A DNA stretch of 64,000 nt. It comes from Bilabrum cf. latius (lineage: Eukaryota). A program made the translations under genes and the position numbers. The stretch is taken from NCBI GenBank assembly GCA_965178125.1, contig CBCXTV010000001.1, positions 124,001 to 188,000 on the forward strand, given 5' to 3'. This document shows, in pieces, positions 898-23,623 of this stretch. The notes under the pieces were generated by a model, which made no database searches, was not told the origin of the DNA, and was given only the letters and a program-made list of their open reading frames with translations. Numbering within the stretch: position 1 is the stretch's first letter; every line of letters begins with the position of its first letter.

Positions 898-1398
898 GAC
901 ACGTGAAAGCTACGCGAACGTGACCACACAATAGGCCATACCCCAGGTGAAATCCGGACTCGGACATCCAGACGAAACGGCATCATGCACACTGTTGAAC
1001 ACACAAATGACACTGAGCTCCACCGTAACGTAACTTTCCATCACCACCTGGTTTATTTTCTCCGCGATGGCAGCTTAGCGGTGACGCTGTGTCTTCGGGC
1101 ATGAAGGGGCAAATCTTTGATTTTTTGGGCCCTGTTTCGGTCACCGAAAAGTCGTGTGATTTCTGGCGCGCAGGAGGAGTGACGCAAGGTATTTCTGAAC
1201 CGTTTTCCGGACGCTTTCCGGGCCTCCCATGTGACCGCTTTTTGCGTACCGAAACACGTTCCGCGCGTGAGGAGCAGATGCGGATCTCCGCGGGGTCCTA
1301 GTTGTGTCCTTTTTCGGGGGACGAAATCGGGCGCACTTGTCGTGCCGATTCGTGGTCGTCTCTGAGACCGGCTGCGAGTCGGGAAAGGTGCCCGGGAG

Positions 1399-2691
1399 AT
1401 GCTCGTGTCCTTGGCTTCGTATTTCTCCGCGTATTCTTCAAACGCGGGCGCACGTCTCCTACCGATTCGTGGTCGGTTTCCGAGGCCGATCGCGAGTCGG
1501 GAAATGCGCCCGCGATGCGCTCTCGATCTCGGAAAGGGCGGGAGTCCGTTCTTGCATTCGGAATGGGCGGGGAGTTGCTTTTCCTGGGAGCATGTGCGAG
1601 ATTCCTTCTCCGCGGGTCCTCTTTCGGCTTCGGCAGTCAGCAGCGCACTCTGCGGGAACGGCATTCTCCGAGTCTCTTTGCCGATGATGTCTGAGGAGAA
1701 ACCCTCCGAGAGCATTGCTGTTTCCTTGGGAGACGGCCGCAATCTTCGTGCGCGTCGAGGCGCCGGTGATATGGGAAACGAGGGCGGCATGTTGGCGCGC
1801 GAGGTCGACGCGCCGGCGGAGCACGCCGGCGCGGCGGCAAGCGTCGATGATTCGCTCGGCCCCCACATCGAGAGCGGCGGCGCGGAGGCGGCGTCCACGG
1901 GGATGCTCGGAGAGGAGAGCGGCAAGGCAGCGCCGAAGGAGGACGCCGAAGACGACGGCGGCAAGAAGACGGAGGAGGAGGATGCTCGCGGCGGTGGACG
2001 TGCTGTGGTGCCCGGAGGTAATGACGACGTATGGACCAACGCAGCAGCTTGGAAGGCGGGTGGCGGCGTGGCAGCCGGGGCGGTCTCTGGCGCTGATAGC
2101 TGGGATCAATGGGGGACCCCTGCGAAGTCGTCATGGGGGGAGACGTACGTGCTGCGGCAGGTCGCGTCGGAGCCGGCGGAGGAGGCGACATGGACTTGCA
2201 ACGCGTGCCAGTGCTGCAAGCCCCGGTCGGCGTACTTTAAGAAGTGGAAGGACTGGATCCAACCAGTTTGCCGGGTGTGTTGCGACAAGTTCGACAACGC
2301 GACGCCGTGGTGGGTGTGGTGCAAGAGCTGCAAAAACGAGTATCCGGCGTACCGATTTCCCCAGATCCGCCGGAAGAAGGAGAACTTGCGCTATTTCTTC
2401 CCTGAGGACTGGTGCGCGAAGTGCCTGGTTGCGCGTGGCTGGAGTCTCCATGATGTCCGTTCCTCTGCGGGTGAAGCGAAGCGTTGGGTGCCAAAAGCTG
2501 GCGCGAATACCGGTGACGGCGACAACGACGCTCGTGCTCCCGCACGCGACGAGCTTCCTGCAGGAGGCGCCGCCTCCTGCAGCAACGCCGTGCGTCAGAG
2601 TTCTTCGCGTGACGAGGCCTTGGATGACATCAAGCGGGCCATGGAGCTTCTCCAGAATGCGGAAAGGTTCCTCCTCACGATGCCAGCGTGA
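1399..2691 (+). CDS. CxxC zinc-finger protein with acidic Gly-rich N-terminus (likely start ATG 1684)
   Basis: Four CxxC pairs (CNAC, CRVC, CKSC, CAKC) and a short C-terminal helix (DEALDDIKRAMELLQNAE). Confidence 0.7.
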   Translation: MLVSLASYFSAYSSNAGARLLPIRGRFPRPIASREMRPRCALDLGKGGSPFLHSEWAGSCFSWEHVRDSFSAGPLSASAVSSALCGNGILRVSLPMMSEEKPSESIAVSLGDGRNLRARRGAGDMGNEGGMLAREVDAPAEHAGAAASVDDSLGPHIESGGAEAASTGMLGEESGKAAPKEDAEDDGGKKTEEEDARGGGRAVVPGGNDDVWTNAAAWKAGGGVAAGAVSGADSWDQWGTPAKSSWGETYVLRQVASEPAEEATWTCNACQCCKPRSAYFKKWKDWIQPVCRVCCDKFDNATPWWVWCKSCKNEYPAYRFPQIRRKKENLRYFFPEDWCAKCLVARGWSLHDVRSSAGEAKRWVPKAGANTGDGDNDARAPARDELPAGGAASCSNAVRQSSSRDEALDDIKRAMELLQNAERFLLTMPA

Positions 2692-4852: not shown

Positions 4853-6490
4853 GTGAGCGATCTTCTGCCCGGTTCCTCACGCGTCATAATGTCCTCTGCT
4901 TCGGTGCCGGATCAGCTCGCACGGATCAGTAAGGAGCTGAAGTGTCTCAGAGACGCGAGACAACGGGCGCGCAATGGGCTGCGCCATCCGTGGTTGCGCG
5001 CCATGGAGGCACAGGTCGCTGAGGTTATTCGTCATCACCCCGGCGGTGGCGAGGCAGCTCTTCGAACCTATGTCTCTCGTCAGTTGCAGAGTCGACAGGT
5101 TTCCACGCGGACGGCTTCGCAGGAGGAGTTTCAAAGGCAGGTCGATGAGGAGGTCGCGCTCACCATGAGGCGCCCAGCTGAGGCGTGGCAGCGAAATCCT
5201 CTTCGCTCATGTCATCGAGAGTCCGTGGCACGCGCAGAGACCTTTCTCGCCGAGGCTTCTGTCGTTGCTTGGATCGACCATGTGAACGAGCAGCGTGGGT
5301 GTGCTCCAACTGGGAACATGGTTTTCGCCATGCTTGCGAGGATGGGCGTTCGCGCGGGGAAGGACTCGGCTCGACGGCAGTGGCTCCTGCGCTTCCGTCG
5401 TCGTTGGCGGCTTCGGCATGGCCGATTGAAGAAGCAGCCCCCGGTAACACTCGATTACGTCAGACTCGCGTGTCGTGTCTTCTATCAGTGGATTGAATTC
5501 GCAGAAGCGCGAGTGCCCCCCAACCGCCGCCTCGTCTTTGTGAATTTCGATGAGTCCAGCGTGCCCTTTGCCTTTCCGGGAATGCGCGGGTACATCGCAC
5601 CGAGGTCAGGAACGGAGCCCGCTTCGCTTGGTTCGCGCACGGAGCGCCTCGCCTCGAATAGCAATCGAGGATCGTACACCTTTCTGGGTTTTATTAGCGA
5701 CTGCCCGGAAATCCAGCGACGACTCCCGCGTATACTCATCGGGAAGCACACGCGGCTGAGCAAGCGCTTGATGCGTGGGGCGCCGAACCAAATGGTGGAC
5801 GGAATGGAAGTCTGGGCCCGAGAGAGCTCGTGGGTGACGCAGTCCCTCATGTTCGACATTCTGCGTCGGCTTTTCGCTTCTTGGATGGACATTCAGCATG
5901 AGATCTATCCAATAGTGATACTTGACTGCGCGCCCCAACACATTTCCACTGAGATTGTGAACTTCGCACACGGCCTTGGCATGGATCTCGTGTTTATTCC
6001 TGGTCGACTCACCTTCCTGCTTCAGCCGTTGGACGTTCTCGTCTTTCAGCTTCTTAAGCGCGACCTTCGGGAGACGTGGATGCAGGAGCGCTCGCGTCAT
6101 GAAGCGGGTCATGTCGATGTCTCTTGCCATCTCAGGGTTGTCGCTGAGTGCACGAAGAGAGTGCTCTCGTCTGGCTCGTGGCAAGGCGCTTTCGATATGA
6201 CAGGCATTACCAGCGGCAGGCGCCGCTTGCATTCGACCCTACGGCGCTTGTTTGAGTGTGACATGGAGGACATCTCCAGCGATGCTCCGTCTGTCGACCA
6301 GCTCCGCTTCATCAGCAGTCCGCAGCAGCCTCTCCCGCACGATGCGCTCATCAACAGGGCCCCAGTCGCGTCCGGACACGCGGTCGACGGAGGCGTCCAC
6401 GGTGGTAACGCTCGCCGCGTGCCTCGTGGCCGCAGACTAAACGGATGGACCCCCCGCGATCGCGCTCACCCCTCGGCGGCCATGCCGTGA
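4853..6490 (+). CDS. pogo-family (IS630-Tc1-mariner) DD35D transposase
   Basis: CENP-B-type HTH signature (RQWLLRFRRRW); catalytic motifs VNFDES, VILDCAPQH and FIPGRLTFLLQPLD, with 35 residues between D2 and D3. Start may be the ATG of MSSASV. Confidence 0.92.
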   Translation: MSDLLPGSSRVIMSSASVPDQLARISKELKCLRDARQRARNGLRHPWLRAMEAQVAEVIRHHPGGGEAALRTYVSRQLQSRQVSTRTASQEEFQRQVDEEVALTMRRPAEAWQRNPLRSCHRESVARAETFLAEASVVAWIDHVNEQRGCAPTGNMVFAMLARMGVRAGKDSARRQWLLRFRRRWRLRHGRLKKQPPVTLDYVRLACRVFYQWIEFAEARVPPNRRLVFVNFDESSVPFAFPGMRGYIAPRSGTEPASLGSRTERLASNSNRGSYTFLGFISDCPEIQRRLPRILIGKHTRLSKRLMRGAPNQMVDGMEVWARESSWVTQSLMFDILRRLFASWMDIQHEIYPIVILDCAPQHISTEIVNFAHGLGMDLVFIPGRLTFLLQPLDVLVFQLLKRDLRETWMQERSRHEAGHVDVSCHLRVVAECTKRVLSSGSWQGAFDMTGITSGRRRLHSTLRRLFECDMEDISSDAPSVDQLRFISSPQQPLPHDALINRAPVASGHAVDGGVHGGNARRVPRGRRLNGWTPRDRAHPSAAMP

Positions 6491-7509
6491 CCTCGACCAC
6501 GACCATGTCAGGGGCGAACGCGACTTCGTCAACCTCGAGCACGACCATCCCAGCGGCGAACGCGGCTTCCTCGATGGGATCCCTGACCCCGACGAAGCTT
6601 CCCCGACCTCGGCCACGTGAACCTGCAGGCGCATTCTTGCCCGATGTGCCCGCGCAGGTGGCGGCCTGCACGGCGTGGGCGCCACCGTTTCGTCGACCAG
6701 ACAGCTCAGCCACTCCGGCGACGCGCGAGGCGGCAACGTCCACGTGCATCAATCCGTGGACCGCTCTCTCCTGGTATCCGACACCACCGCAGCCGACGGA
6801 CCCCCCTTCCGACAGGCCTCGCGAGGTACCGAACCGGAGCTCCCGGCAGCAGCGCAGGCGTCATGCTTGGGGCGGCACGTGGGTGTTCGACGACGCCATT
6901 ACGCTCAGCGATTGCGGGTCGAGGGTGCAGATCGACGCGCCGCAGTCGAAGCTCTTGGCGATGGTCCTGCCCCGGAAGTCGGGCCAGTGGATTCCTCGTA
7001 GGCTGCGCTCGCGTACGATCTGGTATTTGGCTGGGGAGCAGTCGGCCGTGATCACCAACCTCAAGTGCCAGGCCTGCAGTCGGGTCAAGCACGCGGACAG
7101 CTTCAACCCGAAGAGCTTGCGTCGGGCTCAGTACTCGTTGCTGCATTCCCTGTGGCCCGGCTACATACGACGTACCGAGCGGTCTATTTGGTGCACGCAG
7201 TGTGCGGTGGAGGACCAGTTGATGCAGGGCAACTTTCCGGACGGCTACTGTTTCCGGATCCGCGCCACACTCGAAATTTGCCATCAAGATCGCGTCGCGG
7301 CCAAGCTGTTTGCAGTGCACGACAGTAACGCTCTCTTCGAGCAGATCCCGCTGAGCTCCCGTGCGGCCATGGACGTGGCGGAGCAGTTGCGCCGATACTG
7401 GCAGGATGCCGTGTCCTCAGACGGCCAGAGCAACATCTTCCACAGCGACCACGTTTCGACAGACGACGACTCTGAGTTCGCACCGGGCGGACCGGAGAGC
7501 GTGCCGTGA
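6445..7509 (+). CDS. CxxC zinc-finger protein overlapping the transposase 3' end
   Basis: 354-aa ORF; Ser/Thr/Pro-rich N-terminus followed by KCQACSRVKHADSF...WCTQC. Confidence 0.65.
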   Translation: MDPPRSRSPLGGHAVTSTTTMSGANATSSTSSTTIPAANAASSMGSLTPTKLPRPRPREPAGAFLPDVPAQVAACTAWAPPFRRPDSSATPATREAATSTCINPWTALSWYPTPPQPTDPPSDRPREVPNRSSRQQRRRHAWGGTWVFDDAITLSDCGSRVQIDAPQSKLLAMVLPRKSGQWIPRRLRSRTIWYLAGEQSAVITNLKCQACSRVKHADSFNPKSLRRAQYSLLHSLWPGYIRRTERSIWCTQCAVEDQLMQGNFPDGYCFRIRATLEICHQDRVAAKLFAVHDSNALFEQIPLSSRAAMDVAEQLRRYWQDAVSSDGQSNIFHSDHVSTDDDSEFAPGGPESVP

Positions 7510-7830
7510 GGGACCGCAGCGACAGTAGCGTCGCTTAGGTGAGGAGCGGGTGCCAATGCTCTTTTGAAAATGGTGTGTCGTACGTACGGCAGGAGCCGTC
7601 GGTGGGAGCGGGGCGGATCCTGCGGGAAGTCGTGGAGACTGAGGGCAGAGACTCTCGGGTCGGTCAGGGTCTCATGTAACGTGCTGTTCACCGCAGAGGT
7701 ATGTGCGGATCTTGGTGGATCTCTCGAGGACATGGGTGGCATACCGTTGTGCATCCGTTCCCCGGGGGGGGCGGTCGCAGAAGAGTGCACACGAAAACAA
7801 GAGGAAAGGAGACCAACCCCCCAAACCCAC

Positions 7831-7894
7831 GTAGTGCGATCCTGGGGGGTACCCTATAAGGTACTAAGAATCCTTCTCCCGAAAATCGCACTAC
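7831..7894. promoter_or_regulatory. Stem-loop B, diverged direct copy of A
   Basis: GTAGTGCGAT (7831-40) / ATCGCACTAC (7885-94) with conserved core GGTACCCT.TAAGGTACTAAGAATCCTTC; homology to A extends ~65 bp upstream. Confidence 0.55.
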
Positions 7895-10729
7895 CTCGGG
7901 CCACAACGTCTTGGTGGATTCCTCGAGGACATGGGTGGCATACCGTTGTGCATCCGTTCCCCGTCGCTCCCTAACGTCTTCAGTGGCAGGTTCGGAAAAG
8001 ACACCTCCGTAGGCACGCGACAAGTCCCGGTGAAGCGGGCTCGCACCGCGCTGGGCGGGAGATCGTGAGCGCTTAGAGGACCGGAGCTTTCGGGCGGGTG
8101 CGTGTCTCGACAAACTCCCTCTTGACCACGGGCGGGGAACGTGTAGGGCGGAAGCTAAAGACACCGTAAGTAGCGGAGGGCTAACATTCCGTCCTTCGGT
8201 GAGAGCCAAAAGTTCGAGTCTGCGAGAGACTATTATACGAAGTTCTCCCCTCCTCATACGTGCGCATAGCCTCCTCACGCGGTAGCGCGAGCGCGGGACC
8301 CGGACCTGTCCCTGATGGGCGTGAATCTGAACCCGGCGTACTCTCCTAGTCTGTCACTTCCACGACCTTGTTGTCGCGGAACCACTTGCACGGAGAGGAA
8401 CCTGTCGTTCAAGCGGGTGCAGCCGGACGCGCAGGTGTAGTGCATCGCCTTGCATATGTGCACGGCCAAGTAGATGCCGGAACCGTAGAGGTATCACACT
8501 TCCCGCGGAGCTTGGGTGGGTCTTTCGCTGCTGTCGTCTGCTCCAGAAGGTTTGCGCCAAAAACCGGAAAACTTCTAAGACAGAGGTGGGATGCCAGGAG
8601 CTCACGGTCCTGCCGGATTGGGGAGGTCCATGCCCACGCGAGCCGGGTACGCGTCCAAATCAACGCACAGAGCGGGAGCTGAGGGCGCCAAGGACGCTCA
8701 CTGTCAGGCACACACAACGCGCACAGAATTCGTCATTTCGCGTTCAAAGCCTGCCAACGACGTGGCGCTTGGCGAAATGTGGTGGGTGGCGAAGATGTGG
8801 TACTTCGCCGTGCCTTTCTCTATGACGGCCAAGCGTGCACTCGCCATCGCGCTCGGACGCCACAGGAAGAGATCCCAGCTCGCAGCTCCGCCGCCTCATC
8901 CAGGAGTAAGGCGAAGTCGAATCGTGAATAGCGCTTCGCACCTTCACAGAGCCGAGGATCACAGATAGGCCCCGCCTCACAGAACCCAGCGCCATAGGGC
9001 AGAGCGTGAAGTACCTGGCCGCTTGGCTTGGCCGGACCCCCGCCCGCCCTCCGCCGGCAGCTCCTCCCGTCCGTCCCTATGGAGGCAGATCCGCGTACCC
9101 ATGCTGCGGCGGGATCCTGACACAATCCGCTCCTCTTAGTGTGTGGCCGTGGGGCATGAGTGGAGCAGCATCGGGCCCTCACCAGCCGTGGAACGGAAGC
9201 AGCTCTCCGTGCGGCAGCTGTGCGATGCACAGACCTCGTCCCAAAGATACGGATCCATTTTGCCGTCTTCCCGCGCATACTGCATCGCTCTGCAAAACTG
9301 CATTGCGCAGTGGATCCCCGAGCGTCGACTGCCAATAGCAGGCGGCCTCGCAAGGCCTTCATGGACGCAGGATTTGGGCTTCTTCATCGTAAATTTGGGG
9401 TCTGCTCAGCGCGCGAAAATTCCAACGCTTCAAAATGATCCGGACGTCGCGAGAAGGGAACTCGTTGCTTGCTCACCTGTGCGGAGGGGTTGGATGCCCG
9501 ATGTGCTAAAGAGAGGATACTGTCCGTCGGCGTTCTCTCTTCACCTTGTGCGGAAGGGTTGGGTGCCTGATTTCAGACAGAGAAGGTCTCGTCCGTTGGG
9601 AGCGCTTAGGAATACTTCCGGATGGGGCGTCCAGACGCGGTCCAGGACCTCCAGCTCGTCGGGGTCAATGTCGCCCGCGCCGTCCGTGCCTTTGACGCCT
9701 CTGGATCGATGATGCCCACGATCTTTGTCATCTCGGACGACACACGTCCCAGCTGCTCTTTGGTAGTGCATTACCTCATTGACCCCGAAGCGTTGAATAT
9801 TTAATGAAGACCCTTCGGAAGCTGGCGAAGTTTGTCAGCTTGTCGGAGCGCAGCCTGGGTCCTTGTCAACAAACATGGAGGGTTTCGGGGCGGATTTCCA
9901 GCGTTCCGCCTTGATATCGAGTGCACCTCGAGGTCGGGATCGAAGCGGGGCGGGCGGTTCGTCATCCTCTGTGATACGCTTAGGAGGCGCCGACTTGATG
10001 CCCACCTTGTCCCCCAATCACTCCAGACGTAACTGGGGAACTCTTCCCGTCGTGGGCCGGGTACGCCTCCGAATCCCACGCGAGCCGTTCCCCACGGCGC
10101 ACCGATAAGCGCCGCTGCAAGCGTACCAAGAGGGGCGTACCAAGAGGTGCTTCCTTCGCTCGGCAGTGTGGCACTTCAAGCAGTAGAATGTGCCACTCCC
10201 AGCACGTAGGTGGAGTTTGCGAGCTGCCGGCCGACATGCTCGTGTGGTGACCTCCGGCGCACCGATAAGTGCCGCTGCAAGCGCACCAATACTACTTCGC
10301 TTGGGAGCGAGGCACTTTAAGCAATGCAGTGCGCCGGTTTTCGTGCACGCCCAGTCGCGCGGACGCCGCAGGTGGCTTGGCCGTAGGATAGAATTAGTGG
10401 CGGGTCGGTTTTGCATGTCTTCCCTCTCCTCTTGATATGGTACACAAAGGCAAGAGCCTGACGATGCAGACGGAACTCCTGGATTTCACCGCCACATTCC
10501 TAGTCAAGACAGCCCTCGACTAAACAGACGCCGAGTTATCTTGAGCAGCATCCCACGACGCAGTGATGTGGACGGCAAGGGTGATGCCATGCTTTCCGGG
10601 CCTCCCATGTGACCGCTTTTTGCGTACCGAAACACTTTCCGGGGTCGACGCCCCGGCGGAACACGCCGGCGCGGCGGCAAGCGTCGATGTTGCGGGCGGC
10701 CCAGCCATGAGGTACATGATCAAGTACAC

Positions 10730-11784
10730 GGAAAGCACGCAGAGCGTCGTCAATCCGTTCGTGAGCCGCGAGTTCCAAAAGGTCTTCGAGACATCCGCCC
10801 GGAAAGCACGCAGAGCATCGTCAATCCGTTCGTGAGCCGCGAGTTCCAGAAGGTCTTCGAGCACATCCCCCCGGAAAGCACGCAGAGCATCGTCAATCCG
10901 TTCGTGAGCCGCGAATTCCAGAAGGTCTTCGAGCACATCCCCCCGGAAAGCACGCAGAGCATCGTCAATCCGTTCGTGAGCCGCGAATTCCAAAAGGTCT
11001 TCGAGCACATCCCCCGGATGATGTCGAGCATGCGGACGCCCTGCTCCGGATGATGTCGGCCATGCGGACGCTCTTCCCAGACCTTGCGCGGCAGCGGGAC
11101 GAAAATGGAGCTCTCCCTGCACCGCAAGCACGCCGGAAACCTGGTGCACTTCCACGTGTGCATGACGGACTCCGAGAGGTCGCATCGTTGTCGCGTGGCG
11201 GAGGATTTCATTTGGGCCGGCAGCAGGCCGAATGTCGTGTACGGCTTTAAGGTACCGAACCGGAGCTCCCGGCAGCAGCGCAGGCGGAGACATCCGCCCG
11301 GAAAGCACGCAGAGCATCGTCAATCCGTTCGTGAGCCGCGAGTTCCAGAAGGTCTTCGAGCACATCCCCCCGGAAAGCACGCAGAGCATCGTCAATCCGT
11401 TCGTGAGCCGCGAATTCCAGAAGGTCTTCGAGCACATCCCCCCGGAAAGCACGCAGAGCATCGTCAATCCGTTCGTGAGCCGCGAATTCCAAAAGGTCTT
11501 CGAGCACATCCCCCGGATGATGTCGAGCATGCGGACGCCCGGCTCCGGATGATGTCGGCCATGCGGACGCTCTTCCCAGACCTTGCGCGGCAGCGGGACG
11601 AAAATGGAGCTCTCCCTGCACCGCAAGCACGCCGGAAACCTGGTGCACTTCCACGTGTGCATGACGGACTCCGAGAGGTCGCATCGTTGTCGCGTGGCGG
11701 AGGATTTCATTTGGGCCGGCAGCAGGCCGAATGTCGTGTACGGCTTTAAGGTACCGAACCGGAGCTCCCGGCAGCAGCGCAGGC
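10730..11784 (+). repeat. 72-bp minisatellite (7 copies) nested in a 499-bp tandem duplication
   Basis: GGAAAGCACGCAGAG units start at 10730, 10801, 10873, 10945, 11300, 11372 and 11444; derived from the GT-like gene at ~21334-21405. Also at 37925..38979. Confidence 0.93.
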
Positions 11785-12462
11785 GGCATGCTTGGGGCGG
11801 CACGTGGATCTTCGACGACGCCATTACGCTCAGCGATTGCGGGTCGAGGGTGCAGATCGACGCGCCGCAGTCGAAGGTCTTGGCGATGGTAATGCCCCGG
11901 AAGTCGGGCCAGTGGATTCCTCATAGGCTGCGCTCGCGTACGATCTGGTATTTGGGTGGGGAGCAGTCGGCCGTGATCACCAACCTCAAGTGCCAGGCCT
12001 GCCCCGGAAGTCGGGCCAGGGCATTCTCCGAGTCTCTTTGCCGATGATGTCTGAGGAGAAACCGTCCGAGAGCATTGCTGTTTCCTTGGGAGACGGCCGC
12101 AATCTTCGTGGGCGTCAAGGCGCCGGTAATATGGGAAACGAGGGCGGCATGTTGGCGCGCGAGGTCGACGCCCCGGCGGAGGGGGGGGGCCGTACGTGCC
12201 GTGACAGGTCGCGCCGGAGCCGGCGGAGGAGGCGACATGGACTTGCAACGCGTGCCAGGGCCTAAGCCCCGGTCAGAGTACTTCAAGAAGTGGAAGGACT
12301 GGATCCAACCAGTTTGCCGGGTGTGTTACGACAAGTTCGACAGCGCGACGCCGTGGTGGGTGAGGTGCAAGAACTGCAAAAACGAGTTTCCGGCGTACCG
12401 ATTTCCCCAGATCCGCCGGAAGAGGGACGGGCCTCGATCTCGGAAAGGGCGGGAGTCCGTTC

Positions 12463-13785
12463 TTGCATTCGGAATGGGCGGGGAGTTGCTTTTCCTGGGA
12501 GCATGTGCGAGATTCCTTCTCCGCGGGTCCTCTTTCGGCTTCGGCAGTCAGCAGCGCACTCTGCGGGAACGGCATTCTCCGAGTCTTTTTGCCGATGATG
12601 TCTGAGGAGAAACCGTCTGAAAGCATTGCTGTTTCCTTGGGAGACGGCCGCAATCTTCGTGGGCGTCGAGGCGCCGGTGATATGGGAAACGAGGGCGGCA
12701 TGTTGGCGCGCGAGGTCGACGCGCCGGCGGAGCACGCCGGCGCGGCGGCAAGCGTCGATGATTCGGGCGGCCCCCACATCGAGAGCGGCGGCGCGGAGGC
12801 GGCGTCCACGGGGATGCTCGGAGAGGAGAGCGGCAAGGCAGCGCCGAAGGAGGACGCCGAAGACGACGGCGGCAAGAAGACGGAGGAGGAGGATGCTCGC
12901 GGCGGTGGACGTGCTGTGGTGCCCGGAGGTAATGACGACGTATGGACCGACGCAGCAGCTTGGAAGGCGGGTGGCGGCGTGGCAGCCGGGGCGGTCTCTG
13001 GCGCTGATAGCTGGGCTCTATGGGGGACCCCTGCGAAGTCGTCATGGGGGGAGACGTACGTGCCGCGGCAGGTCGCGTCGGAGCCGGCGGAGGAGGCGAC
13101 ATGGACTTGCAACGCGTGCCAGTGCTGCAAGCCCCGGTCGGCGTACTTCAAGAAGTGGAAGGACTGGATCCAACCAGTTTGCCGGGTGTGTTGCGACAAG
13201 TTCGACAACGCGACGCCGTGGTGGGTGTGGTGCAAGAACTGCAAAAACGAGTATCCGGCGTACCGATTTCCCCAGATCCGCCGGAAGAAGGAGAACTTGC
13301 GCTATTTCTTCCCTGAGGACTGGTGCGCGAAGTGCCTGGTTGCGCGTGGCTGGAGTCTCCATGATGTCCGTTCCTCTGCGGGTGAAGCGAAGCGTTGGGT
13401 GCCAAAAGCTGGCGCGAATACCGGTGACGGCGACAACGACGCTCGTGCTCCCGCACGCGACGAGCTTCCTGCAGGAGGCGCCGCCTCCTGCAGCAACGCC
13501 GTGCATCAGAGTTCTTCGCGTGACGAGGCCTTGGATGACATCAACCGGGCCATGGAGCTTCTCCGGAATGCGGAGAAATTCATCTCCGCGATGCCATCGT
13601 GCATGCAGTGTGCGGTGCAGGACCAGTTGATGCAGGGCATCGTCAAAGACCAGGCCCTCTTGGATATCTTCTCCGGCAAGATAACGGACTGGATCAAATA
13701 CCATCCGGCCACTCTTGGGGCGATCCAATCCTATCGAAACGCATGGCTGTGGGCCGACGGAATGGCTCATGGTTGTCGAGGATGA
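12463..13785 (+). CDS. Chimeric paralogue of the 430-aa zinc-finger gene fused to pieces of the 354-aa and GT-like genes
   Basis: Near-identical to the 1399..2691 product up to MELL.NAE, then QCAVQDQLMQG (354-aa ORF) and IVKDQALLDIFSGKITDW (910-aa ORF), all in frame. Confidence 0.6.
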   Translation: MHSEWAGSCFSWEHVRDSFSAGPLSASAVSSALCGNGILRVFLPMMSEEKPSESIAVSLGDGRNLRGRRGAGDMGNEGGMLAREVDAPAEHAGAAASVDDSGGPHIESGGAEAASTGMLGEESGKAAPKEDAEDDGGKKTEEEDARGGGRAVVPGGNDDVWTDAAAWKAGGGVAAGAVSGADSWALWGTPAKSSWGETYVPRQVASEPAEEATWTCNACQCCKPRSAYFKKWKDWIQPVCRVCCDKFDNATPWWVWCKNCKNEYPAYRFPQIRRKKENLRYFFPEDWCAKCLVARGWSLHDVRSSAGEAKRWVPKAGANTGDGDNDARAPARDELPAGGAASCSNAVHQSSSRDEALDDINRAMELLRNAEKFISAMPSCMQCAVQDQLMQGIVKDQALLDIFSGKITDWIKYHPATLGAIQSYRNAWLWADGMAHGCRG

Positions 13786-15124
13786 TATCGAACCTCGCGA
13801 AGCATGCGTGGATCGGCTACTCGTAGTTCTTCACGCCATCGCGAAACCCCAAGGTGACGCAGATGGCCATGTTAGCGGGGTCAGAAGCACCGAGAATGGT
13901 CAGCCTCCAGCGCGGAAACTCACCTCATGCACAACTGCGAGCGCCTCTTGGACGTGCGGACCTATCCGGCGCACTGGGTAGACAACACATTTGTGGTCCC
14001 CTTCCACGTGGGCATGGGCCTAAAGTGGTATCTCATCAGCCCGGAGGGGAGGAAGGCGCTCCTGAAGATGCGGATCCCGAACCGAAGCTTCGAACGCTGC
14101 GTCTGGCGCCGCATCTTCGACACGTTCCAAGGGCCGGTATGTAATGTCCGTCGTGATGTCCGTGTGCGCGGCCCTGAGTTGGGGGGTTGTCTCGTCTGGG
14201 AAAAAACAGAGCGCGTGCCCATCTCCTACGAAGACTTGTGCGGTGTTCACGAGCACGCCGGCGAAACCTCGAGTTTTGGCATCAAGATCGTGTCGCGGCC
14301 AGGCTGTACGACGGCGGCAAGAAGACGGAGAAGGAGGATGCTCACGGTATCGCCCTGATCATCTGCACGACTTCGTGGGGCTCCATGACGTAACGGCGAG
14401 CGAGAACATTGACTGGTGGCGTGGCTGGAGGATCTCGGGAACACACGGCGGGCGAGCCGTTTTTCAAAAGGAGCACGGGTCCTTCGGGACGCCATTTCAC
14501 TTACGGCGGGCGAGCCGTTTTCCGAATGGTGCGGGGGTCCTACTGATGCACACGGCGATCGCTGGTTCACTCACGGCGGGCGAGCCGTTTTCCGAATGGT
14601 GCGGAGTCCTCCAGATGACCACGGTGATGGGTGGCAGCATGTCATAGGCGCGCCGTCGGAAGCTTCCCCTTCGAGTGATGCCTAAAACTGAGAAACCTGG
14701 AGATCCTAGCATCGTATGGAGGCAAGAGGTAACACCTTGGGGTCCGTTCTCCGCTTCAATTCCTGTCCCAAATCCGATTCCCATTTCGAGACCGAAAAAG
14801 GTGACCCGGAAAACGACGGTACTTATTTCTGAACCGTTTTCCGGACGCTTTCCGGGTCTCCCATGTGACCGCTTTTTGCGTACCGAAACACGTTCCGCGC
14901 GTGAGGAGCAGATGCGGATCTCCGCGGGGTCCTATTTGTGTCTTTTTTCGGGGACGAAATCGGGCGCACTTCTCGTGCCGATTTGTGGTCGTCTCTGAAA
15001 CCGGCTGCGAGTCGGGAAAGGTGCCCGAGATGCTTGTGTCCTTGGCTTCGTATTTCTCCGCATATTCTTCAAACGCGGGCGGCAGTGGCTCCTGCGCGGG
15101 AGCTTCCCGAGTGGGTCCGTCGTG

Positions 15125-15321
15125 CAGTGCGCTGGGTAGGTCCGCAGGTCAAGGAGGCGCTCGCAGTTATAGACGTAGGTGGAGTTTGCGAGCTGCCGGC
15201 CGACATGCTCATGTGGTGACCGGAGGTCACCACATGAGCATGTCGGCCGGCAGCTCGCAAACCCCACCTGCGTCTATAACTGCGAACGCCTCCTTGACCT
15301 GCGGACCTACCCAGCGCACTG
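15125..15321. repeat. Long inverted repeat (97-bp arms, 3-nt loop)
   Basis: 15125-15221 is the reverse complement of 15225-15321 with 3 mismatches; loop GGA. Confidence 0.93.
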
Positions 15322-15401
15322 AGCAGACAACGCATTTGTGGTCCCCCTCCACGTCGGCATGGGCTTGAAGTGGTACCTCAGGAGGATTTCACTTGCGCCG
15401 G

Positions 15402-16305
15402 CCCCCAGGATTTCGCCAAAAATGGCCGATCCGCACAAGGAATTTAAGTTGCGGCGACACAGCTCGGACCCTGGCTTTTTTTTGGCTGTTTCGGGGCCCC
15501 AAGAGGGCTCCCGGCCCCAAAAAGGGCAAAACGCGAGGTTGTGGTGGAAAAAATGGGCCCCAAGGAGTCTCCAAACGACGCAAAACGCCACGTTGTGGTG
15601 GATTTTAGAGCCCCTAAATCGCCCAAAAAAGACGCAAAACGCCACGTGGTGGTGGATTTTAGAGCCCCTAAATCGCCAAAAAAGACGCAAAACGCCACGT
15701 TGTAGTGGATTTTAGAGCCCCTAAATCGCCCAAAAAAGACGCAAAACGCCACGTTGTGGTGTTTTTTTTGAGCGTTTTCGGGGGGCTCGGAAGGGGACCC
15801 CCCCAGGATTTGGCCAAAAATGGCCGATCCACACAAGGACTTTAAGTTGCGGCGACACAGTTCGGGCCCCGGTTTGTTTTTGCGGTTTGGGGGCCCCGAG
15901 AGGGCTCCCGGCCCCAAAAAGGGCAAAACGCGAGGTTGTGGTGGAAAAATGGGCCCCAGGCAGCCCCAAACGACGCAAAACGCCACGTTGTGGTGGATTT
16001 TAGAGCCCTAAATCGCCCAAAAAAGACGCAAAACGCCACGTTGTCGTGGATTTTAGAGCCCTAAATCGCCCCAAAGAGACGCAAAACGCCACGTTGTAGT
16101 GGATTTTAGAGCCCCTAAACCGCCCTAAAAAGACGCCAAACGCCACGTTGTGGTGTTTTTTTTGAGCGTTTTGGGGGGCCCGGAAGGGGACCCCCCCAGG
16201 ATTTGGCCCAAAATGGCCGATCCACACAAGGAATTTAAGTTGCGGCGACACAGTTCGGGCCCCGGGGTTTGTTTTGCTGTTTGGGGGCCCCAAGAGGGCT
16301 CCCGG
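15402..16305. repeat. Higher-order satellite: 53-54-bp monomers inside ~395-bp units
   Basis: GACGCAAAACGCCACG monomers at 15577, 15631, 15684 and 15738, then again from ~15970; CCCCAGGATTT..CCAAAA.TGGCCGATCC at ~15402, ~15801 and ~16194. Confidence 0.92.
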
Positions 16306-19124
16306 GAGGCCCTAGAGTGGCCCTTCTCCGCTTCAATTCCTGTCCCAAATCCGATTCCCATTTCGAGACCGAAAAAGGTGACCCGGAAAACGACGGTACT
16401 CTCCGTCACTCCATCTGGCGGCGAAAATTGCCTCAGTTTCCGGTCCCCGATTCCGGGCCCAGGGACCCCCGAAATTCCCGATTCCGCGCAGTGCCGAAAG
16501 CTCGACATAAACCACAAACACGACACACAACACAACACGATAGCGCCTCCCCACGCGCGGGATTGGGTCCTTCCGCTCGCTGCATGTGAGCTGCAGTGTG
16601 TTCTTGCCGGGAATGTCACTGGAAGTCGCGCTGCAGTCTGCTCAGGGCGCCTTATGACCATGAAGGCGTCTCAGCACCCGCGACGGCAAGAGGGGGCACG
16701 CACGACGTTGCGAAGCACCCGCCCTGGGTGAAGAAACTGCGTATCCACAGGAGTCACGTTCAGGTGCGCGAGAATTGGAAAGGCGGGGTAACTGGTGCAG
16801 AGGAGCTTGTTCGCAGCGCGGCTTCCACCAGCGCCGCTGACGGTAAGATGCATCGGTCTCGGTACATGAGTCGGCACGGTGTTGCGTGATTGACTTCACG
16901 ATGCGGGAGTGTGCAGCCTTCCGCAGCGGGAGAATTGTATCTCCCCACGACCGCCGAAAAAAAAAAGAAGGCTATGCTGGACTCGTTCCAGGGAAGGCTA
17001 TGCGATGAGTATCTCTAGGCGCTTTCCGGAAGACCCACCCACTACACGCTGGTCAGCCCTCCCAAGCGGGAGTGAACCGCGGATCCGCGGGCCCGTGAGC
17101 GCTGCTGCTACGATCATTTCTGCCCGTTTGACTCTCGCCCACTCTTGCCGTGACCAAAGACGCGCAGATCCTTATGACGCATGACACCTCGTCGAGGTGT
17201 CGAGACTGCCTCACATTCCCGTTACAAAGACCCACAGCACTGCGACAACGAAATCGGTCACGAAGAGAGCAAGAGGCCGCGCACCTGAGCATCACAAAAA
17301 CCCCGAGAGACATAAACAACACCGTCCCGTGAAGTCCCTGCGACGAGGGGATGCTAAGCGGCTCCCACGGCGGCTCCTCTGCGGGAAAAGCTGCCGCAGA
17401 CCTCGAGATGGGATGCACATGACTGCGAAGATTGCGGAACTCGTCCGAAGCCGGTCGCACGAGGGTCACAGCGAATGGAGGCATATCTATGAAATAGAGT
17501 CTGCGTGCAAAGCAGCATTCCAACGATCGTCCGCATTCTTCCGAGCAAATCCTTGGGAGCACACATCCTGCGGACGACATCTCTTTTCTATCCACCCCAG
17601 CGTACTCCCCGCACACACTTCTCGCGAATGATTGAGAATTCTGTGCGGCACATGTAATATCAGGCTACCATGATACGCGGAATGGCGTGCTATTGCTCGC
17701 ACGTTCGTGCGCCCCCTTCCGAATGCGCTTACCACATCACTATGTTCGTCGGCAACCGTATACACCGTAGGGGTCTTCCCTCCGACACCAAGCGTACACG
17801 ACTGGCCGTAATAGCGCAGCGTAGATGTTTCGGACGTCGCCCAGGACAAGTGTCGACGCCCGGTTCGTCACGATCACTACGTGTGCACTTCACTCACCGC
17901 CCTCCAGCCGCTAGACTTCTTTTGGAGCGCGACATCCTACGACGCGCTATGACACGTAGCCGTAAACCGCAGACGGCCTCGCGTTCACTGCTTGCAGCGC
18001 AAGAGCGTGAACAAGAACCGCCCGCGTGGCACACCTTCGCAGGCGCGGAAGACAAAAAGTTCCTTCTAAGCTTGTATTCGGGTCCGAAAGCCAAATTCCA
18101 CTTCGGGGTCGAGAAGGGCGACCCGGGAAATCACCGTACGCTCTGTGAATCCATTTCCCGGGGAAAGTCCCCGAGTTCCCGCTACCCGGTCCCAGGCCCA
18201 GCGACCCAGGAAAGTTCCCGTCCCCCCGCATGCGGAAACCTCCCACGAAGCACGCCCACCTCACGCTTCACACGCAAAAGTCCAGGAGTCAAATCCATTC
18301 CGGACCCAGCAGTTCACCCCCCGTGACGATTGGGAAAGGCTCTTGCACACACCTTCTCGTCCGAGCAGTCTATGGAGCACACACCTGTCTTCGTTGCCTT
18401 TTCCGGCCAAAAATGCAGGGAGTTCGAAGGGGAAGTAGCAAGCGCGGAAGACCGCTTTCGAAACGCAGGTGCTCAGGGAAAAACAACCAGAGCGTCCCTG
18501 ATCCTCGGCAGAGCCGTCCAGGAGGGACGGGCACGGACGGGCATCGCAGATCTTGCAGCGCCACCATTCGCCGGGATGGGCGACCGGACGAGGGCGACCA
18601 CAAGTACGTAGCGTGCGACGTCCGTCAGTCGCCATGTTGCGCTGATTCGCTTTCGCGGCACGACTTCCAGGGCCGGCCTTACTCACTCCTCGGAGTCCGC
18701 GTGTGGATTCTCCCCTGCGCATGATCTGCCGCTCTAGATGCTACACAAAGATCCCGCTCGGATGACCCCCTCTGTGCATTCTGCAAGATTTTACGCGCCT
18801 CCATTCAATGCGCGAAGCATGCACCGCAGCAGTCTGAGTCCGGTGACCACCTTCAATAGCGTGGGACAAATTCCGTCCGCGATGTGCATTCGGGCATGCT
18901 CCCCTTTCCGAGTCTCTGTGACCCGTAGTGCGTCCGCGGCCAACGACTCAGGACTCCACGATGGTACGCACGAGTTGCATTCCTTGCACGAAGCGTGCGG
19001 AGAGAAAGCGATGCTCAGACATCGAGGCGCTTGGAGGGTCTGCACGCGACATGCTTCGAGAGGCCATGCAAACATGCGAAACCAGAACTGAGGTTCCTCA
19101 TCGTTCCTGCTGTCGAGCGCTCAA

Positions 19125-21857
19125 TTGGGGCATCGGATCAGGACGAAGCTCGCGAAGAGAGGGCGCGGGTGTCCCCATCCAAAAATCCGCCGCCTTCAAG
19201 GCTCATGTTCCCGGATCCTGCATTCGCGAGTTTCGGGAGCAGAAGTGCAAGATCGCCGCTGGACACACAGCGCATGCCATTTCCCGTCTCTGGAGATGTC
19301 GGGCTTCCAGGCGCAATTCGGACACCATCGCCAGGACCTCGGGAAGATGACATGTCTGCTGATCTGCAGGGAAGAGTCCCGCTTCGAGGAGTGGCGACAA
19401 AAAAAAGGGGCGCGAGAACTCCACGAGCACATGGGAGCGGTCCTTCGGCTCCCCAATCCAGTGTTTCCGCAGACCGACAGGGACCCAGATGGACGCGACA
19501 TCGTCAAAGACCAGGCCCTCTTGGATATCTTCTCCGGCAAGATAACGGACTGGAGCAAATACAATCCGGCCACTGTTGGGGCGATCCAATCCCATCGAAA
19601 CGCATGGCTGTGGGCTGAGAACCACACGCCGACGGAATGGCTCATGGTTGTCGAAGATGATATCGAACCTCGCGAAGCATGCGTGGATCGGCTACTCGTA
19701 GTTCTTCACGCCATCGCGAAAAACCCCAAGGTGACGCAGATGGCCATGTTAGCGGGGTCAGAAGCACCGAGAATGGTCACCCTCCAGCGCGAAAACTCCA
19801 CCTCCATCCACAATTGCGAGCGCCTCTTGGACGTGCGGACCTATCCGGCGCACTGGGTAGACAACACATTTGTGGTCCCCTACCACGTCGGCATGGGCCT
19901 AAAGTGGTATCTCATCAGCCCGGAGGGGAGGAAGGCGCTCCTGAAGATGCGGATCCCGAACCGAAGCTTCGAACGCTGCGTCTGGCGCCGCCTCTTCGAC
20001 ACGTTCCAAGGGCCGGTATGGAAGTGGGGAGATTGCCTCCGCATGACATCTGTGCTGGCAGCCAGCCCGGTCCTCGCATCGACTCCCGAGAGCATGGACA
20101 CGGAGTGGGGGGGCTCGGGACGACGAAGTGCGGATGCAGGGCACAGTATGAAACCGTACATAATGGTCGACCCGAGTGACGACTGGACTCTTGGCGAGCG
20201 ATTAAACACATTGTCCGTCGTGATGTCCGTGTGCGCGGCCCTGAGTTGGGGGGTTGTCCTCGTCTGGGAAAAAACAGAGCGCGTGCCCATCTCCTACGAA
20301 GACTTGTGCGGTGTTCACGAGCACGCCGGCGAAACCAACACGTTCGTCCACCTCCTCCAGGACAAACGCGGCGGGTCGTATTCGTACTTCCTGAGGTACG
20401 GAGACATCCGCATCCACGTGGTGCAGCCGATGATGTGCATCCCCACCCTCGACAGAATGCTCGACATGGTAGCCCTGAAGAGGCCCAAGATGAACACCCT
20501 GCCTCCCTTGAAATGGCAGACCGCTCGATGGATCCAAGTCAAGCAGAAGTGGATCGATAAACTCCACACGGAGATGCCGGGGGCCGAGCTGCCCTCATGG
20601 CTGGAGTGGCCACCCTCAACCCACGCGCTTGTCCTCTGCGACGACAGGGACTTGGCGGCGCACTGCCTCGAGGGGAGATGCCAAAAGGAGCAGCAGGAGT
20701 GGATGAACGACGGGAAGGACAACAGCATCCAGCACTACATCCTTGAGGCAAAGCAAGCGCTGCAGAACGAGTTGGAAGACATCCTAAAGGGGGACAGCAG
20801 CTCACGCCTCGTCGTGATCCGCATGACAACCAAACTGCTGGGACAGGTCTGGGTGGACATGATGAAGCACCTCACGAAGCAGTTCGGGAAGCGCATCATA
20901 ACGCCAACGTTCCTCCTCCCGAAAATGATCCCCAAAAGGAGGCACGACGAAAAGAACCCGAGTGATGATTGGATTACTTGGGGAGCATCCTTGGCGAAAA
21001 CCGTGGGCCTCCTCACGCTCATACCTCCGATGCAAGTGCACTATCCCATCATGAGCTGGACCGTGGCCTGGAACCACTTCATGTTTAAGGGCAGGACTGC
21101 CACGGACACCGTGATCCCAGACGTCATCCGAACTCTGTACGCTCCGCACAAGAGCAACAGGAAGCAGCTCCTCAAGAACGGCCCGCTGTGCCAGACGAGG
21201 CGCGCCGTGCTGGACTCGCCCGCACTGCGGGACATTGCGAACAACTACTCAAGGGCCAAGGACAAGACCTATAACCTCTTGAGTTATTCCAAATGGTTTG
21301 CCGAAGAAGCCATGTGGCACATGATCAAGTACGCGGAAAGCACGCAGTGCATCGTCGACCCGTTCGTGAGCCGCCAGTGCCAAAAGGTCTTCGAGCACAT
21401 CCCCTCGGACGACATCGGCCATGCGGACGCCCGGCTCCGGTACAACCTTCAGGATGCCGACGACCGAGGTTACCGCTTCAACGCGGGGCATCTCTACACC
21501 GCGGTGCAGGGCATCAAAACGGTGAACATCGCATACAACAAGTGGCTCACCGAGCAGGCACAGAGTCATTCCGAATGGAGCTGGGGCAAAACGTTCATCA
21601 AGCTTGTGATCAACCAGTGGCGGCAGCAGCAGGGCAGTGAGCCGTATGACGTGGACGAGGAGGACTACGTGAGCCTTCCGCGGACCTTCCACGGGAATTC
21701 GTTGAAGCTCGCGAGGAGCGTAAGCCTCCAGGACACGAGATCCTGCTCCAGATCGTCCTCATCCTATTCCAGGTCGCCCTCCACCAACAGGACTGAGGCA
21801 CAGCCTTCGAAGAGAGCGCGCCTGACCCCGGCACCCGGCGTAAAGCACGAGCCCTGA
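19125..21857 (+). CDS. Large protein with an N-terminal GT25-like glycosyltransferase domain and a possible second GT-like domain
   Basis: 910-aa ORF; SHRNAW...WLMVVEDD and YLISPEGRKALL match the GT25 pattern SHxxxW...LILEDD / YxISxxGAxKLL. True start is probably downstream of 19125. Confidence 0.65.
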   Translation: MGHRIRTKLAKRGRGCPHPKIRRLQGSCSRILHSRVSGAEVQDRRWTHSACHFPSLEMSGFQAQFGHHRQDLGKMTCLLICREESRFEEWRQKKGARELHEHMGAVLRLPNPVFPQTDRDPDGRDIVKDQALLDIFSGKITDWSKYNPATVGAIQSHRNAWLWAENHTPTEWLMVVEDDIEPREACVDRLLVVLHAIAKNPKVTQMAMLAGSEAPRMVTLQRENSTSIHNCERLLDVRTYPAHWVDNTFVVPYHVGMGLKWYLISPEGRKALLKMRIPNRSFERCVWRRLFDTFQGPVWKWGDCLRMTSVLAASPVLASTPESMDTEWGGSGRRSADAGHSMKPYIMVDPSDDWTLGERLNTLSVVMSVCAALSWGVVLVWEKTERVPISYEDLCGVHEHAGETNTFVHLLQDKRGGSYSYFLRYGDIRIHVVQPMMCIPTLDRMLDMVALKRPKMNTLPPLKWQTARWIQVKQKWIDKLHTEMPGAELPSWLEWPPSTHALVLCDDRDLAAHCLEGRCQKEQQEWMNDGKDNSIQHYILEAKQALQNELEDILKGDSSSRLVVIRMTTKLLGQVWVDMMKHLTKQFGKRIITPTFLLPKMIPKRRHDEKNPSDDWITWGASLAKTVGLLTLIPPMQVHYPIMSWTVAWNHFMFKGRTATDTVIPDVIRTLYAPHKSNRKQLLKNGPLCQTRRAVLDSPALRDIANNYSRAKDKTYNLLSYSKWFAEEAMWHMIKYAESTQCIVDPFVSRQCQKVFEHIPSDDIGHADARLRYNLQDADDRGYRFNAGHLYTAVQGIKTVNIAYNKWLTEQAQSHSEWSWGKTFIKLVINQWRQQQGSEPYDVDEEDYVSLPRTFHGNSLKLARSVSLQDTRSCSRSSSSYSRSPSTNRTEAQPSKRARLTPAPGVKHEP

Positions 21858-22731: not shown

Positions 22732-23202
22732 ATGGCGAGCGACGCAGAACCGGAGGACGCAATGCGGCTCGACTCCCCTAGAGATGCGGATGCAGCGGCG
22801 CCACCCGAAGCGACGGAGGCAGGATCACAGAAACCAGATCATGCGCAGCAGTTCTTCGAGGAGCCCTGCCCGAAAGACGGACACATGGAAGCGCTAGAGA
22901 AGACCGCCAAGACGGACGAACCTGGCGACACACCCTTGTTCGTCGACAAGTGGACGGCAGCGATCACACGCCTTACCGAGGAGCGCAAGGCTCTCAAGCT
23001 CGAGCAGCGGGCTAAAACGAAGGCCATCCGCAAAACCATCCGGCAGAAAAGGCGCACCATGAAGAACGCCAAAAAACTCACAGACGACGAGCTCGCCCAA
23101 ATCGTGCTAGACAGGAAGATCTTGCAGTTGGTGCAAAAAGAAGAGATCGCAGCACGCAGCTCCGCCAACTCCTCAACGAGCCAGGCGAAGTCGACCTTGT
23201 GA
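22732..23202 (+). CDS. Small basic coiled-coil protein upstream of hairpin A
   Basis: ATG 22732 (MASDAEPED) within ORF 22375..23202; acidic N-terminus then RLTEERKALKLEQRAKTKAIRKTIRQKRR...LTDDELAQIV. Confidence 0.6.
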   Translation: MASDAEPEDAMRLDSPRDADAAAPPEATEAGSQKPDHAQQFFEEPCPKDGHMEALEKTAKTDEPGDTPLFVDKWTAAITRLTEERKALKLEQRAKTKAIRKTIRQKRRTMKNAKKLTDDELAQIVLDRKILQLVQKEEIAARSSANSSTSQAKSTL

Positions 23203-23623
23203 GAAGCGCTTCCCGTGTTCAGAGAACCGAGGATTACAGATAGACCCCGCGTCACAGAAGCCATCGCAAGAGGGCAGAGCGTCAAGTACAGCGCAGTCTT
23301 GACGGACACAGATAGCCCGAGCAGCACAAAGCAGCGGATGCGGCTGCCCAGCGGAGTCGCGCACTCGGACAGCATACACGGGACGTGCTGGCAGAAATCA
23401 CTCAGTCCGCGAGCACCGTCGTCAAGAGCACGGGAGGGGCAGACTCGACATGCACAACTTTGAAAAACGGGAGGGCACGAAAGGAAGACAAATTTGGCAT
23501 TAATCCTTGATTACCCCCGCCCCCCCGTAGAATCAGAGCGAGGAGATATGCTCGGAAGGTCCGGGGGGCAGTCGCAGAAAAGTGCACGCGAAAATAAGAG
23601 GAAAGGAGACCCCCCAAACCCAC

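Follow-up and report, generated by a model that had tools for sequence, protein, structure and literature searches.

A decaying patchwork of self-derived gene fragments in a multicopy 27.2-kb element with a Rep-helicase and a pogo-type transposase

Results and Discussion

The repeat unit and its genes

The window, i.e., the whole 64,000-nucleotide stretch that was analysed, contains a multicopy unit of 27,195 bp (~27.2 kb). The region of main interest lies at 8866..15380, and a second copy follows exactly one unit further on, at 36061..42575 (plus strand). All genes listed in this paragraph are encoded on the plus strand. The ZnF430 ORF (1399..2691) has no Pfam match, and its "ZnF" name reflects a Cys pattern only. 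It is followed by a pogo-type DDE transposase (4889..6490; DDE_1, E=2e-11) with an intact D-D-35-D catalytic triad, the ZnF354 ORF (6445..7509), the GT853 ORF (19296..21857) and the cc156 ORF (22732..23202). The GT853 label is tentative, as glucosyltransferase matches were weak only (PHROG, E=0.0013); a single-sequence fold of its product reached a pLDDT of 38 and was set aside. The Rep ORF (24377..26662) combines HUH motifs I-III with the Walker A, Walker B and C motifs of an SF3 helicase, and is a CRESS-type protein in which a Y1 HUH domain is fused to an SF3 helicase. Rep returned no match in Pfam and none in a sequence search against the PDB.

On the 5' side of Rep, a stem-loop (arms 23618-23642 and 23669-23693) with short direct repeats occupies 23563..23900 and is a candidate origin, with a weak predicted fold (z=-2.4). 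No capsid gene was recognised in the unit by Pfam or PHROGs, no Rfam family was detected in 1-28000, and a motif search for spliced-leader relics gave no matches. A bacterial-type promoter scan was likewise negative.

Composition of the patchwork

The original prediction described 8866-15380 as a mosaic assembled from fragments of most genes of the unit itself. This holds for 69% of the region, where 4505 of 6515 bases match the remaining unit, and for 90% (4312/4790) of 10591-15380, but not for 9470..10590, which is unique sequence and interrupts the patchwork. Shuffled controls yielded no matching bases in 20 of 20 cases, and none of three control windows gave a match. Fragments stem from five of the eight long ORFs, while the DDE transposase, orf173 and orf230 contribute nothing. 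ZnF430 is the main donor, with 98% of its length copied across the variants, compared to 80% for ZnF354 and 25% for Rep; GT853 is also a donor and cc156 a minor one. Donor bases are genic in 84% of cases, while 53% would be expected (P=0.03). All pieces listed in the prediction were recovered within a few bases, and each could be assigned to its donor at 81-99% identity (1-19% divergence). Their predicted, mostly sense orientation was borne out as well, with 31 direct pieces and one inverted piece in 7700-15401.

The first piece, a copy of the stem-loop region, lies at 7766..7902 (plus strand, 90% to 23563-23695) and is a candidate cis site that Rep-less units retain. An old piece from the cc156 3' end and its downstream sequence follows at 8866..9014 (plus strand, 81% to 23140-23289), and a Rep piece at 9425..9468 (plus strand, 96%) is longer in some variants (25811-26037). 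The unique segment contains a minus-strand Cys-rich ORF of 132 aa (10018-10416) and, at 9796, the only AATATT of the unit.

Pieces of ZnF430, GT853, Rep and ZnF354 form a dense plus-strand mosaic over 10591..14396, which also contains tandem duplications of 72 bp and 499 bp. It starts with a copy of 1213-1263 (10591-10641, 98%), a ZnF430 piece (10640-10702, 89%) and a GT853 piece (10703-10803, 88%) that leads into the 72-bp tandem copies. The 499-bp duplication (10788-11786) and two Rep pieces (11070-11246, 94-95%) precede a ZnF354 piece (11749-12002, 97%), three ZnF430 pieces (12020-13601, 92-98%), two GT853 pieces (13638-14268, 94-99%) and three short pieces (14268-14396). Further on, plus-strand copies of 16321-16400 (14744-14823) and 1190-1450 (14824-15081, 96%) abut in a footprint-like junction. 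A fold-back hairpin at 15125..15321, built from GT853 and 10204-10257 pieces, has 97-nt arms with three mismatches (z=-23). Tandem repeats of 394 bp and 54 bp (15402..16305, plus strand) separate the patchwork from the excision site. The segments 7766-7902, 14744-14823, 10788-11786 and 15125-15321 and the unique 9470-10590 had not appeared in the original list.

Variation and decay among copies

The comparison comprised the window version and nine others. The core order is common to all 10 variants, while lengths, duplications and donor alleles differ; the rest of the unit is colinear at 94-99.9%, mostly 98-99.9%, and the patchwork is not conserved above that level. Two junctions are kept in all nine other variants and several more in seven or eight of them, whereas each of four junctions of the window version recurs in at most one. 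In line with the original prediction, which listed none, no variant contains a transposase piece, an absence with a chance probability of P=0.26. The hairpin is present in four of the nine other variants, with 0-10 arm mismatches, and absent in five; it is dispensable.

Substitutions in the pieces are spread over the codon positions (53/50/58) and are accompanied by frameshifting indels. The synonymous share is slightly raised (52/161, P=0.03, with pieces that are not independent). Selection on 7766-7902 and 14270-14580 had been considered from their invariance and was dropped, as the same degree of invariance is seen in 20 of 181 windows.

At the junctions, pieces overlap by 0-5 bp or are separated by inserts of 3-5 nt. 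Microhomology of at least 3 bp was found by eye at about three of 10 clean junctions, a modest excess over the null value of 6%; automatic scores for this feature were noisy. Two out-and-back insertions were identified: GT853 sequence within a ZnF354 piece, which is absent from one copy on contig C45, and 853 bp of ZnF354 within a ZnF430 copy on contig C63. Taken together, the patchwork is real and decaying and is built from copied scraps of the element's own genes, and pieces of both unit halves are duplicated, deleted and refreshed among copies on a continuing basis.

Boundaries of the Rep module

TA and imperfect inverted repeats flank the Rep half of the unit, with TA and the left repeat at 16397..16428 (plus strand) and the right TA at 1190..1191 (also 28385-28386) after the repeat 1160-1189. 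The ends match at 16 of 21 positions, with a chance of 7e-5 among TA-anchored pairs. At about 11 of 57 sites, the Rep half is missing, while 46 are filled; every one of the 46 left ends maps to an element contig, with an identical flank in the 12 whose flanks were read. Among 66 matches, the junctions at empty sites were TA-CT-TA, TA-CT-A (4), TA-G-TA (1) and TA (1), and these four TA-anchored types look like excision footprints. One such junction was copied into the patchwork at 14744..15081 (16321-16398, TA-CT-TA, 1192-1450). Rep-less whole units of 14-15 kb, intact genes included, occur in arrays, and a search for the joined ends of an excised Rep module circle gave no matches. Footprints and cutting chemistry are predicted here from the sequence and from the rules for transposons of this type.

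Elements of the pogo/Tc1-mariner type carry a DD35D triad, target TA and leave footprints of 0-2 nt. The unit resembles them in its DD35D triad, the TA at both ends, the imperfect inverted repeats and the footprint-like junctions. However, it also carries a CRESS-type Rep and exists in a tandem or circular multicopy state, and in the 27.2-kb family the repeats at which cutting seems to occur do not enclose the transposase gene. In families A-C, by comparison, the whole unit would lie between ends that we read as joined.

Related families and host

The pairing of Rep with a pogo transposase was found in six families of the assembly, five besides this one, and in three metagenome contigs, with unit sizes of 13.7-27.2 kb. 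A patchwork is missing from the compact families of 14-15 kb, whose dispersed repeats amount to 159-1579 bp versus 7665 in the 27.2-kb unit. Rearranged regions on contigs C55 and C58 consist mostly of a shared foreign module and not of own genes. The Rep-helicase family comprises 907 representatives (50% clustering, E<=1e-30). Among 10 candidate viral contigs, no relative was confirmed, and the literature searched, which covers few subscription journals, yielded only other endogenous viruses and no description of the element.

The element probably resides in a second eukaryote that was sequenced together with the assembled organism and whose genome is probably unassembled; an 18S sequence (C95) that looks dinoflagellate-like would be that of this host. 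Four run rows with a share under 0.2 were left out. Base composition was rejected as a host marker, with chromosome samples (GC 0.53-0.69, TpA 0.32-0.59) overlapping the element. Piwi had no match in the assembled genome, which is uninformative on the element's host since the assembled organism is probably not that host.

On balance, we lean towards placing the unit in an undescribed class of large DNA transposons, very diverse and probably from dinoflagellates, that amplify themselves: the pogo transposase would cut and insert, and the CRESS-type Rep-helicase would amplify circles or concatemers. The element is more novel than its patchwork. If confirmed, such a class would be a rolling-circle counterpart of Polintons and casposons and a likely host for many orphan marine Rep sequences, and it would offer a testable route to tandem arrays in dinoflagellate genomes.

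Origin of the patchwork

We consider it probable that the patchwork is a non-coding scar within a dispensable spacer, left by break repair with template switching together with duplication and deletion. The transposase would cut at the inverted repeats, and Rep would nick the unit and amplify it into concatemers or circles. Neighbouring copies would then template the repair of broken ends, with template switching, and multimers would collapse through microhomology deletion. Repair products would survive only where genes are not hit, and the homology of resident pieces to their donors would promote further exchange. Such a history would not require a function for the patchwork. Several observations speak against it: the kept core order fits common descent but also selection, the donors show the genic bias given above, the microhomology excess is small, the synonymous share is slightly raised, and the patchwork sits outside the inverted-repeat pair, 1 kb from the cut site, by which it differs from classic gap-repair fillers.

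It is unlikely that the region is a silencing cassette, in which a mosaic transcript from the minus strand or both strands, together with the hairpin, would give rise to putative small RNAs that damp the genes of the element or its close relatives. As all pieces share one orientation, a single transcript of the minus strand would run antisense to five genes; the mild bias towards ORFs, the nearly perfect 97-bp hairpin and the presence of the core in every variant examined are also in line with this idea. A uniform orientation is expected from direct-repeat deletion, too. The dsRNA trigger, however, is not maintained across copies, with unpaired changes accumulating in the hairpin arms, and transposase pieces are absent. 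Decay is even over codon positions, content varies among copies, conservation does not exceed that of the rest of the unit, the compact families have no such region, and the rearranged DNA of C55 and C58 is mostly the shared foreign module. piRNA clusters such as flamenco hold many same-orientation fragments of mobile-element genes, and hairpin siRNA loci contain a long hairpin, whereas the patchwork is element-borne and has no transposase piece. That the transposon class outlined above exists and has also co-opted its patchwork as a small-RNA cassette recording and damping its own genes seems improbable to us.

The original prediction had alternatively proposed a product of template switching akin to defective-interfering DNA. 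Direct orientation, microhomology, out-and-back insertions and Rep-less units agree with the template switching, but the patchwork is firmly built into the unit and is not itself a free defective replicon. A once free satellite of origin and scrambled helper DNA that later recombined into the unit, and that would allow replication of Rep-less units in trans, is conceivable but unlikely. The region opens with the copy of the stem-loop upstream of Rep, and the unit's sole AATATT lies within it, a motif found between DDE and Rep in five of five other families (P=6e-5). A motif akin to the conserved hairpin apex occurs in six copies in C58 and three in C55. Moreover, C104, a contig with one Rep-less unit, closes on itself, and C101 is a 5.9-kb Rep-less unit of family A. 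Yet both origin sites (7766-7902 and AATATT at 9796) are candidates only, one AATATT per 27 kb is near chance, and the invariance of the stem-loop copy is unexceptional. No patchwork-only contig was found among the best 40 candidates scored of the DNA matches, and in all copies fetched the patchwork is flanked by unit sequence, with no separate smaller molecule.

A nursery for chimeric proteins is highly improbable: the ZnF430-ZnF354-GT853 fusion frame at 12595-13785 (396 aa) is open, but the fusion piece carries six synonymous versus 18 non-synonymous changes and is lost or rearranged in other variants. An assembly or library chimera is scarcely credible and, for the junctions, already largely refuted. 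The whole stretch is not spanned by any contig compared, and along C44 the units may have been ordered by an assembler path through variants. Nevertheless, a 1.7-kb patchwork query matched over its full length at 99-100% in 13 places on four contigs, rearranged versions occur on about ten more, and 14239-14532 was found without differences, across two junctions, in contigs from three other studies; the divergence of the pieces from their donors also argues against an artefact. The prediction had argued against a chimera on the grounds of recurrence in both window units. Its conclusion stands through the independent contigs, while the recurrence is weak evidence since only 23 differences separate the two units over 36.8 kb.

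Comparison with known systems

CRESS-DNA viruses share the Y1 HUH-SF3 Rep with the unit but not its size, with genomes of a few kb. Geminiviruses and further ssDNA viruses give rise to defective and sub-genomic DNAs (PMC3187698), in which sequence of the Rep replicon itself has been deleted, duplicated, inverted or inserted, and Rep-less derivatives keep a cis site. The patchwork, too, consists of rearranged helper sequence. In contrast to the DNAs covered there, however, the mosaic is fixed in a full unit of 27 kb, which carries a DDE transposase and in which no capsid gene was found.

Pack-TIRs (PMC8277862) and the Tc1/mariner-derived MITEs (PMC3814204) are tied to gap filling and abortive gap repair in TIR transposons. 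They resemble the patchwork in template switching at short microhomologies (a median of 2 bp in Pack-TIRs), in favouring nearby templates and in small junction inserts, but here the element's own genes serve as donors, about 30 pieces are joined instead of one or two, and the inverted-repeat pair does not enclose the mosaic. Replitrons and Helitrons are eukaryotic mobile DNAs with an HUH Rep as well; according to PMC10288648, the former lack a helicase and the latter combine a Y2 Rep with an SF1B helicase, while the unit has a Y1 Rep with SF3 alongside a separate DDE transposase.

The "jumbled" plastid minicircles of the dinoflagellate Heterocapsa triquetra, as outlined in PMC1679814, also hold scrambled multi-gene fragments of one replicon family, but are free 2-kb plastid circles with photosynthesis and rRNA genes, whereas the patchwork is a region within a Rep/DDE element in an array with an LTR insertion. 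The patchwork is an unusually clear record of a multicopy element scrambling its own genes, with ten variants that can be compared directly. As to the LTR insertion present in the array, its ORF has no Pfam match, and an Atlas search gave weak gag-like leads only (0.78-0.82).

Reality and layout of the patchwork

The patchwork of copied gene fragments (window 8866-15380) is real, and every piece listed in the original prediction was confirmed in the sequence. Matches to the rest of the unit account for 69% of the region and 90% of its dense part (10591-15380), compared with 0 matching bases in 20 shuffled controls. The layout is bipartite, with sparse pieces at 7766-9468 and a dense mosaic from 10591 onward, and 31 pieces are direct versus 1 inverted. 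The unique stretch in between (9470-10590) carries a small minus-strand ORF (10018-10416; 132 aa, two Cys-x-x-Cys repeats), which runs opposite to the unit's main genes, had no Pfam or PHROG match, and lies in the region that donated half of the patchwork hairpin.

Among the sequencing runs listed, 15 from 11 studies contain patchwork DNA; four of these runs, one per study, served as an independent check. Coverage reached 29-30 of 30 bins in these runs, and a contig bridging the entire patchwork was found in none of the four. Three of the runs yielded a 294-bp contig that crosses junctions 14307 and 14345 with 0 differences. The tested junctions are therefore real.

Decay and donors of the pieces

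Relative to their donors, the pieces carry 53, 50 and 58 substitutions at the three codon positions as well as frameshifting indels, and 52 of 161 substitutions are synonymous versus 25% expected. Ten variants of the unit have a common core order in the patchwork; they are set apart by duplications, deletions, and donor tracts that are longer or fresher, and the remainder of the unit is colinear. Apart from the window's own version, nine variants were compared: two junctions are present in all nine, several in seven to eight, four in none or one, and the hairpin in four. In two cases the donor is left and re-entered near the exit point: one ZnF354 piece is interrupted by GT853 sequence, and one ZnF430 copy by 853 bp of ZnF354. 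Read by eye, junctions show 0-5 bp overlaps or 3-5 nt inserts. Since the donor order jumps backward about as frequently as forward, a single deletion pass is insufficient.

Elsewhere in the window, 18062-18242 is an old copy (72%) of the left boundary region 16322-16503 with a TA and end-like sequence, and 2892-3873 is a tandem duplication of approximately 470 bp (83%) with a partial orf173 start. Near 2074, a 38-bp insertion in ZnF430 is present in most other variants and changes the reading frame compared with the ORF of the window; the true structure of this gene is uncertain.

Origin of the patchwork

The patchwork is most likely a scar of repair and recombination, a reading we favor with some reservation, and would be a new form of already known defective or filler DNA. 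Transposase cuts and Rep nicks would break DNA that is present in many copies close together, repair could switch templates among neighboring copies, and the multimers might then collapse, with the gene-free spacer presumably being the sole place tolerating such products. Published work describes template switching with short microhomology during gap repair (PMC3814204, PMC8277862) and sub-genomic DNAs of Rep viruses with deletions, duplications, and inversions (PMC3187698), and mentions jumbled minicircles of a dinoflagellate plastid (PMC1679814). A silencing locus, the other option initially proposed, appears unlikely. The uniform orientation does not argue against it, because a single minus-strand transcript would be antisense to every piece. 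Genic sequence supplies 84% of donor bases versus 53% expected (P=0.03); transposase, orf173 and orf230 contributed no copied pieces, the transposase being missed by chance with P=0.26.

Probable excision of the Rep module

The arrays contain full units plus 14-15-kb units without GT853, cc156, Rep, and orf230. The lost module begins at 16399, ends at 1189 of the following unit, and is flanked by TA on both sides; its two ends form an inverted match at 16 of 21 bases (chance 7e-5). We counted 46 filled and 11 empty sites (seven verified in fetched sequence, four inferred from spacing or junction type). The 66 junction matches take four forms (TA-CT-TA, 60; TA-CT-A, 4; TA-G-TA, 1; TA, 1), which correspond to the forms of Tc1/mariner footprints. 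Most TA-CT-TA matches are the copy inside the patchwork. Beyond 1283, the three aligned short units of this form have the donor alleles at almost every diagnostic site, although two crossovers within the 170 identical bp may still account for this form. The other three forms cannot originate from the copy inside the patchwork. Contigs C104 and C102 each consist of a single unit with seamlessly joining ends, which fits circles or collapsed arrays. In C63, a 359-bp inversion (18835-19193, L038) lies immediately inside the module's left end.

Genomic setting

The window, a part of contig C44, comprises 2.35 copies of the 27,195-bp unit (99.94% identity between copies); the assembly totals 48.6 Mb in 111 contigs. 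All 107 Rep and 85 transposase matches in the assembly search lie on C44 and above, with none on C1-C43. The 18S genes are of two kinds with 77-83% identity to each other; one forms a tandem set on C12 (L042) and is putatively stramenopile, and the other is a single gene on C95 (L041) and is putatively dinoflagellate. Each of 10 runs, carrying six organism labels, contains at least half of the patchwork words, and the LTR-type insertion of one unit copy is single-copy in the assembly. In our inference, a second, co-sequenced eukaryote carries the element at high copy number. The LTR element (L039:4685-7312) spans 2.6 kb; it has LTRs of approximately 440 bp and a 513-aa gag-like ORF, and it is flanked by a 5-bp target duplication. 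Very long retroelement-like ORFs on the unplaced contigs C51, C54, and C60 also point to a second organism.

Carrier element and related families

Rep combines HUH motifs I-III with an SF3 helicase and is matched by 907 representatives at E<=1e-30; in the Atlas, the closest annotated clusters are CRESS Reps, the top three clusters being unnamed. The transposase is of DDE_1 type with an intact D-D-35-D triad. Both occur together on all seven other Rep contigs fetched (five families, 22-33% identity) and in three of 16 metagenome loci, the remaining 13 being just 1.9-5.2 kb long. All five other families have an AATATT motif between transposase and Rep (P=6e-5), in C58 as an exact geminivirus-type nonanucleotide. 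Three families have in common a further hairpin, whose apex is conserved. We interpret it as a junction of two inverted ends that lacks 3 nt, though it may instead be a nick site; its lone free end in C63 is compatible with both. Literature searches found no description of the carrier, which merits separate follow-up; it fits neither Replitrons nor Helitrons as defined in PMC10288648.

Dispersed repeats cover 159-1579 bp in compact 13.7-15-kb units, versus 7665 in the window, 9864 in C58, and 6109 in C55. The 11-kb rearranged region of C58 consists of tiles from a 3.2-kb segment that C55 also has (84-99%), part of which also occurs in the family-A variants C52 and C57; the Reps of C58 and C55 are 29% identical. 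A scrambled, expandable spacer is thus recurrent among families, but the element class does not consistently carry an own-gene mosaic. Three families with Reps approximately 29% identical share, at 84-99%, a module of 2-3 kb that contains 24/45-bp repeats and copies of an apex-like motif (C55 unit 8391-11637, C58 unit 2223-13650, C57 11330-13128); it is possibly a hitch-hiking satellite.

At least five further families with Rep and pogo-DDE genes (units of 13.7-25 kb) are present in the assembly on C50, C52, C55, C57, C58, C59, C61, C73, C101, and C102 (L001-L020, L081-L090, L114-L115), with C75 and C89 assigned by DDE match only; four of them share a GT-like ORF. The start of C63 (L037:1-1620) is family-A DNA that ends mid-hairpin and is joined to the window family's DNA at TA, either by cross-family insertion or at a nick site. 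C101 (L114-L115) carries a tandem 5,947-bp, Rep-less family-A unit in which the hairpin is kept and the transposase gene is broken.
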